Positions 46,622 through 48,509 of a DNA stretch of 64,000 nt are shown here, piece by piece. Origin of the DNA: Candidatus Kryptoniota bacterium (GTDB taxonomy: Bacteria; Bacteroidota; Ignavibacteria; Kryptoniales; JAKASW01); NCBI GenBank assembly GCA_046706365.1, contig JBJKPN010000080.1, forward strand, positions 23,644 through 87,643, in the 5' to 3' direction. The notes under the pieces were generated by a model that did not search any database, was not told the DNA's origin, and saw only the letters and a program-made list of their open reading frames with translations. Positions within the stretch are counted from its first letter, which is position 1. Each line of letters starts with the position of its first letter. Position numbers and translations under genes: made by a program.

Positions 46622-47346
46622 CTACTCAAGAACTGTGGAAAAAGTATTCCAGGCGAAGAACCGTTGCGGTGAAGAAAGAGCTCGTTCTGGCCTACCTGAG
46701 CCTCGTGAAATTCGCCGCGAGAGCCATAAACCTGCCTTCCCGTTGTGTCTTCAACAACGACGACCTGATAAGTATCGGAATAATCGGGCTGAACGAGGCG
46801 ATAGAGAGATTCGACCCGGGGCGCGGGGTGAAGTTCGAGACTTTCGCCTCACAGAGGATTCGTGGAATCATGCTCGATGAAATCAGGAAGATCGACTGGC
46901 TTCCGAGATCCATCAGGGACAAGTATAAGAAGGCCTCCAAGTCCTTGAGCGAGTTGAACATGGATACCGTCAACGGTGAGAAATACGCGAGGGCGATCAA
47001 CATGAGCGTCAGTGAGTTCGAGCAGATCAAGGGCTATCTCGCGAACGCCGAAGCCGTCTCGCTGACAAGAAGCATCGGTGAGGACATGACTCTCGAGGAC
47101 GTCATCAGCAGCGACAGCGAAGTGATTGAGATGTACGAAGATGCGGAAATGAAAGAACAACTTGTCGTGGCCCTCAAGAAGCTCCCTGAGCGGGAACGGA
47201 TGGTCCTGACCTTGTACTACTACGAGGAACTGACCTTCAAGGAAATCGGGAAGACCCTGGGTATAAGCGAATCCAGAGTTTCCCAGATCCATTCCGAGGT
47301 CATTGCGAAGTTGAAGCAGCTTTTCAAGAAGGAAGTCGAATTATGA
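46618..47346 (+). CDS. fliA: Flagellar sigma factor sigma-28 (FliA/SigD)
   Basis: Region 2 ([37 protein letters not shown]), region 3, and region 4 ([38 protein letters not shown]). Confidence 0.94.
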   Translation: [242 protein letters not shown]

Positions 47347-48509
47347 TAGAGGTTGGACAATTGACAGACAGGTTATCATCTATAAGAGAGCTTCCTACTT
47401 TTCCCACAACTGCCCTCGAGGTGATGCGCCTCGCGAGCGACTCCGACAGCAGCGCGGCTGAGTTGGCGCAAATCATATCGAAGGACCCTTCCTTGTCGGC
47501 CAGGATACTCCGGGTCGCTAACTCCCCGTTCTATGGGTTTGCAAGGAAGATTTCGACCGTCGAATGGGCGATCGTCGCCCTGGGTTTCGAGACCCTGCGC
47601 GACACGGTCCTTTCTCTCACCCTCATAGACCTGTTCAAGGGGGGAGCAGCCAAGCACTTCGACCCGAGGAGGTTCTGGAAGCATGCCATCGACACGGCAT
47701 CTTCGGCACGTTCTCTCGCGAAGGAGATCAGATTAAGACGCCCCGGGGAAGCTTATGCGGTCGGACTACTTCATGATATCGGGATCCTCGTCCTCTACAA
47801 GTACTTTCCTGACGATTTCGAAGAGATTCAGACGCTCATAGACGAGCAGAGCCTTCCGCAGTCCCAGGCCGAGGCGATCGTCATCGGGACAAATCATGCG
47901 GACGTTGGGGCGTGGCTCGCCGACAAGTGGAATTTCCCGAAGCACTTCGTAGAGGCAATAAGGTATCATCATAATCCTGCGTTCGCCGAAGTCAATCCGC
48001 AGCTGACTGCAGTCGTTCACATTGCAAATCAGATTGCGTCTGCGACGGGTTATTCGTGCTCCGATCTCCCGATAAAGGTGGATCCGACAGCCGTGCAGCT
48101 GCTCGGAATGGATAAGCTCGGTCTCTCATTCAAGGCCCTTGCGGATAAGTACATGACCGACGATTTATCCGCCACGGTGAAGGTCAAAGTTCCGATCTTC
48201 GACTACGCGCTGCAGGAACCGGACCAGGAACAGCCCGAAGATGCGAAGGTGGTAGATACAGCAGAGCTCGATGATGAGACGCTCAAACGCTTCTTCAAAG
48301 ACGCCATTAAACTCCTGCCAGCTATGGAAAGACTGGTCATGACCCTGAAGCTGTACGAGGGACTGGACATGAAGCAGGTAGCGACGGTACTCGGCTATGA
48401 GGAGCCAAGAGTCGCAGAATATTACAAAGGCGCCGTTGCTGCACTTCAGCAAATGGCGGAACGTGCAATACTGACAAACAGGTTGGAACAATGGAAAATG
48501 AAATTCTAA
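47343..48509 (+). CDS. HDOD domain protein with a C-terminal sigma-70 region-4-like HTH (FliA r4 paralogue)
   Basis: HDOD blocks LPTFPTTALEVMRL, SKDPSLSARILRVANSPFYGF, GLLHDIGILV, RYHHNP. An acidic linker follows. The C-terminal LLPAMERLVMTLKLYEGLDMKQVATVLGYEEPRVAEYYKGAVAALQQM aligns without gaps to FliA region 4. ATGA overlap with fliA. Confidence 0.75.
   Translation: MIEVGQLTDRLSSIRELPTFPTTALEVMRLASDSDSSAAELAQIISKDPSLSARILRVANSPFYGFARKISTVEWAIVALGFETLRDTVLSLTLIDLFKGGAAKHFDPRRFWKHAIDTASSARSLAKEIRLRRPGEAYAVGLLHDIGILVLYKYFPDDFEEIQTLIDEQSLPQSQAEAIVIGTNHADVGAWLADKWNFPKHFVEAIRYHHNPAFAEVNPQLTAVVHIANQIASATGYSCSDLPIKVDPTAVQLLGMDKLGLSFKALADKYMTDDLSATVKVKVPIFDYALQEPDQEQPEDAKVVDTAELDDETLKRFFKDAIKLLPAMERLVMTLKLYEGLDMKQVATVLGYEEPRVAEYYKGAVAALQQMAERAILTNRLEQWKMKF

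Follow-up and report, generated by a model that had tools for sequence, protein, structure and literature searches.

We describe HDOD-σ4, a 388-aa protein encoded at 47343..48509 on the forward (+) strand of a 64,000-nucleotide stretch of Candidatus Kryptoniota contig JBJKPN010000080.1 (hereafter the window). Its open reading frame (ORF) directly follows fliA, the gene for sigma-28 (σ28), and has three parts: an N-terminal HDOD domain, an acidic linker, and a C-terminal tail resembling region 4 (σ4) of a sigma factor. The sequence evidence confirms this architecture and delimits it well, and no earlier description of it was found. The most likely role of HDOD-σ4 is to adjust the expression of flagellar genes through imitation of part of the sigma factor. 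As to how, we tentatively favor, at somewhat less than even confidence, a tail that mimics FliA σ4 and competes for a σ4-binding partner. From the comparisons set out below we infer an action on FliA, a mechanism of protein mimicry in place of DNA binding, and the possible identity of the partner.

The tail is homologous to region 4 of FliA and WhiG

The gene upstream of HDOD-σ4 (fliA, 242 aa, 46618..47346, +) encodes a genuine FliA. Its product scores 215.7 bits with the NCBIfam model FliA_WhiG, against a cut-off of 189.6, and matches Pfam Sigma70_r2 and Sigma70_r4. It is the donor-type homologue of the tail, and its gene is translationally coupled to the next. The fliA stop codon overlaps the HDOD-σ4 start in an ATGA at 47343..47346 (+), a junction first proposed in an earlier interpretation of the window made without database searches (the sequence-only reading) and legible directly in the DNA (...gaattATGAtag...).

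The same reading had assigned roughly the last 70 residues of HDOD-σ4 to sigma region 4, and this assignment is borne out by profile, BLASTP, PDB, and fold evidence. Among many NCBIfam models, the best sigma model for the tail was FliA_WhiG (TIGR02479), with residues 298-371 aligning to profile positions 149-222 of 224 (E 5.8e-9). By BLASTP the tail is 33% identical to the neighboring FliA over 79 residues (E 7e-12), in an alignment that extends about 15 residues upstream of region 4.1 and into the acidic linker between FliA regions 3.2 and 4. Where about 20 identities had been counted by hand in an ungapped alignment of 50 residues, a recount gave exactly 20. A phmmer search of all PDB sequences placed only FliA and WhiG at the top (E 5e-7 to 4e-4), with 6pfj (WhiG, 5e-7) and 9wsf (FliA, 5e-6) followed by 7lq4, 6pmi, and 1rp3. 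An AlphaFold model of the tail alone, with a predicted local distance difference test (pLDDT) score of 86.8 and a predicted template modeling (pTM) score of 0.72, shows four helices in the σ4 arrangement. The helix-turn-helix expected here was recovered, as the top 50 Foldseek PDB matches of this model were all sigma region 4; they include WhiG and the σ28/FlgM complexes 9wsf and 1rp3, at query-normalized TM-scores of 0.54-0.73. We consider the homology of the tail to FliA/WhiG region 4 to be secure.

The forecast for Pfam came true in part. The HDOD family (PF08668) was found by hmmscan as predicted, whereas the region 4 families PF04545 and PF08281 did not rise above their gathering cut-offs in the window protein (Sigma70_r4_2, 17.0 bits versus 25.7; Sigma70_r4, 14.4 versus 24.1). 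The sequence-only reading had staked its region 4 assignment on such a match; taken literally, the Pfam cut-offs, and they alone, speak against it, and the other tests support it. At E≤0.01, Sigma70_r4_2 matched 24 of 26 family members (best E 4.6e-6) and Sigma70_r4 matched 18, and the homologues P0015, P0016, and P0019 carry precomputed Pfam region 4 matches. GerE (PF00196) gave no match to the tail at E≤1; the real FliA gives a weak one.

Because regions 2 and 3 are absent, HDOD-σ4 is not a sigma factor, as had been argued from the letters of the window. Neither Sigma70_r2 nor Sigma70_r3 matched the protein, and against the full-length FliA_WhiG model it reached 36 bits where the cut-off is 189.6, aligning to C-terminal profile positions only. 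The label "RNA polymerase sigma factor" that one family member bears in the Joint Genome Institute (JGI) annotation is incorrect.

The region 4-like domain itself occupies residues 313-372 (48279..48458, +), and its four helices include the helix-turn-helix. A conserved, family-specific C-terminal extension follows (residues 373-388, ERAILTNRLEQWKMKF; 48459..48509, +, including the stop codon), for which FliA has no equivalent. Six of its residues (A375, I376, R380, L381, W384, and K385) are invariant in the family alignment, and the tail-only model predicts, at lower confidence, an extra (fifth) short helix within it.

An HDOD domain and a flexible acidic linker precede the tail

Residues 1-285 (47343..48197, +) form an HDOD domain by Pfam and Foldseek, in agreement with the sequence-only reading. 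Pfam HDOD matched residues 17-212 over the full profile (1-196) at 227.2 bits, against a cut-off of 22.9, and did so in 26 of 26 family members tested. Beyond this core, alignment to HDOD2, a paralogue encoded by the next gene, carries the fold to about residue 285, much as had been supposed. The HDOD domain of HDOD-σ4 (HDOD1) is 39% identical to HDOD2. Its top Foldseek matches were 3hc1 (E 3.6e-10), 9qzk (SadB), 3mem, and 3m1t. The full-length model has a moderate overall pLDDT of 66, with blocks of ~71-92 over residues 101-240.

The putative ligands of an HD-type metal site are retained in HDOD1 (H114, H144, D145, H185, H209, and H210). One study describes a di-iron site of five His and one Asp in the Geobacter HDOD protein 3HC1 (PMC12075610). 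The HDOD1 set matches that site in number and kind, making a putative metal site plausible. The domain may plausibly have a sensing role, via metal, redox state, or nucleotide.

The linker (residues 286-312; 48198..48278, +) had been called acidic, and its net charge is indeed -10; across the family the mean is -5.3 and the range -10 to 0. It is disordered, with pLDDT <50 at residues 260-309, and hypervariable in both sequence and length in the family alignment. Its C-terminal part still aligns to the FliA region 3.2-4 linker.

The tail is a conserved invention of one clade

Clustering at 90% identity sorts the full-length HDOD-σ4 proteins into ~41 groups, with lengths of 383-398 aa and identities to the window protein of 60-100%. 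Those that carry a name are assigned to Candidatus Kryptoniota or to metagenome-assembled genomes (MAGs) labeled "Bacteroidetes bacterium". Among species-representative genomes, 20 loci were found. An exhaustive search of 1.84 billion representative proteins with a profile of the tail gave only four matches at E≤1e-10, none of them from outside this family. Two are gene fragments, one is a full-length representative, and the fourth is a deletion variant (locus L022, described below). The score then drops from 149 to 53 bits, and below the drop stand the C-termini of sigma-factor-sized (~250 aa) proteins together with short fragments. Since the matches are confined to the family and are followed by this drop, the tail is a discrete invention of one clade. 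No other architecture bearing the tail appeared in either word-based or exhaustive profile searches; the extra matches were fragments or the L022 variant. The expectation that a fusion of HDOD to region 4 would prove neither common nor already described therefore held, the tail being limited to this clade. In the available text of the literature searched for HDOD with FliA or a sigma factor, no HDOD-sigma fusion appears, and the earlier statement that no such protein had been characterized stands to that extent.

The tail is also the best-conserved part of the protein in the family alignment, and tails taken alone show 83% mean column identity. We estimated the ratio of nonsynonymous to synonymous substitution (dN/dS) and the proportion of nonsynonymous differences (pN) as Nei-Gojobori medians. 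Synonymous sites are mostly saturated (proportion of synonymous differences, pS, ~0.78), which leaves the ratios rough and their ranking clear: dN/dS is 0.05 in the tail (pN 0.10), 0.07 in the HDOD domain (pN 0.17), and 0.68, or near-neutral, in the linker (pN 0.55). By these estimates, no other part of the protein is under purifying selection as strong as that on the tail.

The best match of the tail is the neighboring FliA, which makes a local rearrangement at the fliA 3' end probable, and one might suppose that the tail is simply a functionless relic of that event. The selection data effectively refute this idea. Even allowing for saturated synonymous sites, the tail has the lowest dN/dS in the protein, and it is intact in ~41 sequence clusters and 19 species-level genomes. 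We give the relic explanation almost no credence.

HDOD-σ4 belongs to a fliA-linked module that is older than the tail

Does HDOD-σ4 always follow fliA? The sequence-only reading had raised this question, and the order fliA-HDOD-σ4 was found in 19 of 19 intact related loci. In all 19 the genes run flhA, flhF, flhG, an 82-aa membrane ORF, fliA, HDOD-σ4, HDOD2 and continue with a GAF histidine kinase, a 236-aa membrane ORF, flgF, and flgG. The 4-nt overlap of fliA with HDOD-σ4 and the 19-nt overlap of HDOD-σ4 with HDOD2 are identical throughout, and the 4-nt overlap is shared by the 20 related loci with a full-length gene. In the window, HDOD2 is a tail-less paralogue of 286 aa (48491..49351, +) whose start overlaps the 3' end of the fusion gene by these 19 nt. 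The kinase (49372..50775, +), with GAF, HisKA, and HATPase domains by Pfam, is conserved as part of a fliA-HDOD-kinase module.

Outgroups carry a simpler version of this module. Candidatus Chrysopegis kryptomonas has fliA, then one tail-less HDOD gene encoding 291 aa, then the GAF kinase. An Ignavibacteria MAG (locus L025, 6376-10336 of JAERMQ010000003.1) has fliA, a single HDOD gene encoding 324 aa with an 8-nt overlap, and a histidine kinase. A homologue in KSB1 lies in a cheW context instead. Because the outgroups carry a tail-less HDOD gene after fliA, the fliA-HDOD-kinase module is older than the tail. It follows that the HDOD protein itself is a candidate partner of FliA, an option absent from the sequence-only reading. 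The outgroup loci also suggest that a FliA-linked HDOD module is widespread, and unstudied, in phyla of the Fibrobacteres-Chlorobi-Bacteroidetes (FCB) group.

The single-copy HDOD proteins of Chrysopegis and the Ignavibacteria MAG are 49% and 43% identical to HDOD2 and 38% and 39% identical to the HDOD1 core. Since they are closer to HDOD2, HDOD2 looks like the conservative orthologue and HDOD-σ4 like the derived copy. The tail scores 45 bits with FliA of its own lineage, 41 with that of Chrysopegis, and 36 with that of the Ignavibacteria MAG, a small margin. By sequence, the tail probably came from a local rearrangement involving the fliA 3' end. We hypothesize that a tandem duplication running from fliA region 4 through the HDOD gene produced the order fliA, HDOD, region 4 copy, HDOD, and that the first HDOD gene then lost its stop codon, which would have fused the region 4 copy to the HDOD upstream of it. 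This model accounts for the gene order, for the residual homology between the C-terminal part of the linker and the FliA region 3.2-4 linker, and for the HDOD start that overlaps each σ4-coding end. The outgroup state and the synteny fit it as well.

A neighbor-joining tree did not confirm the tandem duplication. HDOD1 and HDOD2 are each monophyletic (100/100) but are sisters in 0/100 bootstraps, and HDOD1 lies outside a group made up of HDOD2 and the HDODs of Chrysopegis, Chitinivibrionales, and Ignavibacteria. The duplication of HDOD1 and HDOD2 may date further back and have been followed by losses; alternatively, HDOD1 may be fast-evolving and misplaced.

Two lineages have altered the module. 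At locus L022 (10001-10366 of chromosome OY969815.1), an in-frame deletion of residues 42-308 leaves a 121-aa ORF composed of the first 41 residues and the tail. The surrounding locus lacks flhA, flgF, and the kinase and has a truncated flhF, and the tail has changes at otherwise invariant residues (G340R, Q370R, and K385E). This state suggests decay after flagellum loss. At loci L001 and L002 (5650-12950; GCA_027334685.1, DAHWUI010000003.1), which represent the lineage of the most divergent full-length member (P0041, 60% identical to the window protein), no flagellar structural genes remain on either side of the module, and both flhF and HDOD2 are cut short. Intact at these loci are flhG, the small ORF, fliA, HDOD-σ4, the GAF kinase, csrA, and two response regulators. 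The regulatory core thus seems to outlive the flagellar genes there, and HDOD-σ4 can persist without an intact HDOD2, since these loci keep the one gene and have truncated the other. Because the module is decaying or rearranged in two lineages without local flagellar structural genes, its constraint appears tied to the flagellar system.

The tail shows relaxed constraint at -35-reading positions

In the E. coli σ28 holoenzyme, σ4 makes only two contacts with the -35 element, through K208 and R220 (bioRxiv 10.1101/2020.01.02.893370). They are phosphate contacts; a K208/R220 double mutation lowers activity, and the -35 contact is called weak (bioRxiv 10.1101/2020.01.02.893370). In 21 Kryptoniota FliA proteins, both contact positions are invariant, and an 11-residue stretch here is essentially invariant as a whole. 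By spacing, we take K208 to be the K of F-K-E-I-G and R220 the R of E-S-R-V in the window FliA; the 12-residue distance fits.

The tails depart from this pattern. Among 50 unique tails, the K208 equivalent is R in 32, K in 8, H in 4, S in 2, G in 2, P in 1, and Q in 1 (basic R/K, 40/50), and the R220 equivalent is R in 27, K in 18, S in 2, I in 2, and Q in 1 (basic, 45/50). Within FliA RVSQIH, S becomes A (45/50), Q becomes E (45/50), and H becomes an invariant Y (Y361). The first R of FliA LPERER is replaced by M, T, S, A, or N, with K in one case. The tails have meanwhile acquired invariant surface residues of their own: FF317-318, K336, G340, Y352, E354, Y361, QQ369-370, and R380/L381/W384/K385. 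To judge from these substitutions, the constraint of a -35 reader is relaxed in the tail while the domain as a whole is strongly selected. A protein-binding module therefore fits better than a DNA reader, although this is not proof. Of the three actions that the sequence-only reading put forward for the tail (FlgM decoy, -35 occluder, and flap competitor), occlusion of -35 elements is weakened by the relaxed K208/R220 equivalents and by the replacement of S, Q, and H.

A DNA-binding function nevertheless deserves to be weighed against partner mimicry. HDOD-σ4 could be an HDOD-gated transcription factor whose σ4-like helix-turn-helix binds the -35-like TAAA of σ28 promoters or a new site, and its linker, acidic on average, might serve as an autoinhibitory DNA mimic. 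The predicted fold of the tail is that of a DNA-binding helix-turn-helix, and the remodeled face of the recognition helix (A, E, Y, Y) is conserved, which could mean a new DNA specificity. Moreover, 80-90% of tails still have a basic residue at each of the two σ28 DNA-contact positions, the net charge of the tail is +4, and the local charge of the recognition helix is ~-1 in tails and FliA alike, so DNA binding is chemically possible. Electrostatics do not discriminate as a test of DNA binding, the helix charge being equal in the two groups. Yet each recognition-helix residue that FliA keeps invariant has either given way to another in the tail or become relaxed there (Q to E in 45/50, for example), and the σ28 σ4/-35 contact, two phosphate contacts, is weak even in the holoenzyme. 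Isolated σ4 domains are generally poor DNA binders, and the tail has no GerE/LuxR-type match. The σ28 promoter pattern TAAA-N14-16-GCCGA occurred 3 times in the window versus 1.6 expected, which is not significant. All told, we find a DNA-binding HDOD-σ4 rather unlikely. One of the pattern matches (TAAA-N15-GCCGA at 37007-37029, +) is intergenic and lies just upstream of fliL, where it is a candidate σ28-type promoter.

Two further roles for the tail seem improbable to us. In the first, HDOD-σ4 would bind core RNA polymerase: like region 4 of a true sigma factor, the σ4 copy would attach to the tip helix of the β-flap and then either block sigma factors in general or bring the HDOD domain to the enzyme. 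The modeled tail keeps the σ4 fold and its hydrophobic core, and docking on the β-flap is generic to sigma region 4. A free competitor for the flap would hit all sigma factors and not FliA alone, a poor fit to the strict linkage and coupling to fliA, and we would be surprised if this were the answer. The other role is purely intramolecular or structural, with the tail packing on its own HDOD domain or driving oligomerization. The tether is long enough to permit docking in cis, and both the C-terminal extension and the remodeled surfaces are conserved. This role, which strikes us as a long shot, leaves the FliA-type origin of the σ4 domain and its lasting linkage to fliA unexplained. Moreover, the tail ORF at L022 has outlasted the loss of the entire HDOD core, though that copy shows decay.

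No FlgM was found in the scanned ORFs of the flagellar cluster

The window is a flagellar and chemotaxis supercluster that includes che genes, flgB...flhA, flhF, flhG, fliA, flgF...flgL, motAB, fliW, and csrA. The sequence-only reading saw no flgM in it, and Pfam scans agree: FlgM (PF04316) matched neither HDOD-σ4 nor any individually scanned window ORF, a set that took in the flgJ-flgN region, a 92-aa ORF between flgC and fliE, and other small ORFs, the remaining small gap ORFs not being scanned. The 3' end of flgJ overlaps flgN, leaving no space for flgM at its customary position. The cluster in the 64-kb window likewise holds no flagellin gene, fliD, or fliS. Because those genes too lie outside the cluster, flgM could be located with them elsewhere in the genome. 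In a related genome the flagellar cluster ends at a terminal glycosyltransferase gene, and a metagenome scan with this glycosyltransferase returned distant homologues only.

The 92-aa ORF (25076-25354, +) takes up precisely the space from flgC to fliE and carries the motif SAERAFFARLFP. Its N-terminal half is of low complexity and rich in S, A, Q, and G. It has no Pfam match and does not look like FlgM.

A proposed model for HDOD-σ4 action

The gene directly after a sigma gene is the typical place of a cognate anti-sigma factor or regulator, as in the operons of extracytoplasmic function (ECF) sigma factors and their anti-sigma factors. We propose that HDOD-σ4 is a lineage-specific regulator of FliA in which a flexible acidic tether connects an HDOD sensor, bearing a putative metal site, with a FliA σ4 copy that has diverged. 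This copy would compete with FliA for a partner and so change how much FliA enters RNA polymerase. Availability of the tail would be set, through the flexible tether, by the HDOD domain and perhaps also by the neighboring GAF kinase, and translational coupling would keep FliA and HDOD-σ4 in a fixed ratio. Candidate partners are a FlgM-type anti-sigma factor and the paralogous, fliA-linked HDOD protein.

Several lines of evidence count in favor of σ4 mimicry: the homology and fold of region 4, the strong selection on the tail, the tight coupling to fliA, the HDOD gene and kinase that follow fliA in outgroups, the relaxed constraint on DNA-reading positions, and the altered state of the module in two lineages without local flagellar structural genes. 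PhyR and the HDOD protein SadB, both discussed below, serve as precedents. On the other side stand the basic contact positions and the charges of the tail described above, and several further points weigh against the proposal. FlgM, one of the two candidate partners, did not turn up among the window ORFs scanned. The full-length model, at a pLDDT of 66, says nothing on docking between tail and HDOD domain. Finally, all carrier organisms are uncultured and represented by MAGs.

Other genes of the cluster

Two membrane proteins are encoded next to the module. The first, a small one (82 aa, 46373..46621, +), is predicted to be multi-pass and has no significant Pfam match; its ORF comes after flhG and runs 4 nt into fliA. 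This ORF is present at all Kryptoniota loci, and its place in the flhG-fliA gap of Chrysopegis is taken by an 86-aa ORF. The second (236 aa, 50772-51482, +), a single-pass protein, is kept in synteny between the GAF kinase and flgF, and its C-terminus gives a weak DUF2802-like match (E 0.005). Its place is that of swrB after sigD in the fla/che operon of Bacillus subtilis.

In the FlgJ-like protein (55638-56465, +), the rod-binding domain is accompanied by an SLT lytic transglycosylase domain; the enterobacterial FlgJ has a glucosaminidase domain. Farther along, in the part of the window at 60572-61321 (+) and 61314-62410 (+), fliW and csrA form a pair as in the Bacillus-type flagellin partner switch. 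They are followed by a receiver-Hpt protein, a single-domain response regulator, and a glycosyltransferase-TPR gene that closes the cluster.

Discussion

To our knowledge, mimicry of a sigma factor is known essentially from one system, PhyR. In that system, the sigma-like domain of PhyR serves to decoy an anti-sigma factor (PMC4551977, PMC4814048). HDOD-σ4 resembles it in that a sigma-derived domain without sigma function is fused to a signaling domain, and the mechanism that we propose would follow the same logic as the NepR decoy. However, PhyR acts in the general stress response of Alphaproteobacteria, and it has ECF-type σ2 and σ4 regions at its N-terminus together with a phosphorylatable receiver domain. 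HDOD-σ4 has σ4 only, of the σ28/WhiG type and C-terminal to HDOD, lacks Response_reg, and has no known anti-sigma partner. The NCBIfam PhyR model falls far below its cut-off with both the 99-residue tail piece (E 2.8e-4) and whole HDOD-σ4 (E 2.7e-3). By analogy, then, PhyR is the closest functional counterpart of HDOD-σ4, yet HDOD-σ4 is no member of the PhyR family.

In sequence and structure, the closest relatives of the tail are the region 4 domains of FliA and WhiG, known from complexes with FlgM (1rp3, 9wsf) and with RsiG and cyclic di-GMP (c-di-GMP; 6pfj, 7lq4). The tail differs from them in its missing regions 2 and 3, its replaced recognition-helix residues, its extra conserved C-terminal helix, and its attachment to HDOD. 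Control of σ28 through the export of FlgM is the textbook coupling of gene expression to assembly, and FlgM is reported to dock on σ28 mainly through the surface of region 4 (Sorenson et al. 2004). HDOD-σ4 would fill the same niche as FlgM, namely post-translational control of FliA, and its gene stands at the usual place of a cognate anti-sigma factor. The two are unrelated in sequence and fold, however, as FlgM is small, largely disordered, and exported.

The N-terminal 285 residues place HDOD-σ4 among bona fide HDOD proteins such as Geobacter 3HC1, Pseudomonas SadB, Xanthomonas GsmR, and MmoQ. Known partner domains of HDOD are receiver or YbaK-like domains, whereas HDOD-σ4 carries a sigma domain. 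Several HDOD proteins influence flagellar gene expression (PMC6543031). One of them, SadB, works as an adaptor protein through which a transcription factor is passed on to proteases (PMC12075610). Binding of c-di-GMP by SadB, as found in an earlier report (PMC6543031), was not reproduced in the later study (PMC12075610).

A bolder extension of these comparisons is that HDOD-σ4 represents a second, independent case of sigma mimicry after PhyR, with a σ4 domain captured from fliA and mounted on a metal-binding HDOD domain as a switchable decoy. In that case the ancestral fliA-adjacent HDOD protein of Kryptoniota and Ignavibacteria would be a σ28-binding regulator not recognized before, an anti-sigma factor or proteolysis adaptor working beside FlgM or instead of it. 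We regard this scenario as speculative and, taken as a whole, unlikely.

The function of HDOD-σ4 is deduced here by computation; the proteins are small and look soluble, and they should therefore be amenable to binding and in vitro transcription work. If our proposal is correct, mimicry of the partner-binding domain of a sigma factor would have evolved more than once, and the poorly understood HDOD domain would gain a concrete target. Moreover, the conserved fliA-HDOD-kinase module would then constitute an unstudied layer of flagellar regulation across phyla of the FCB group.

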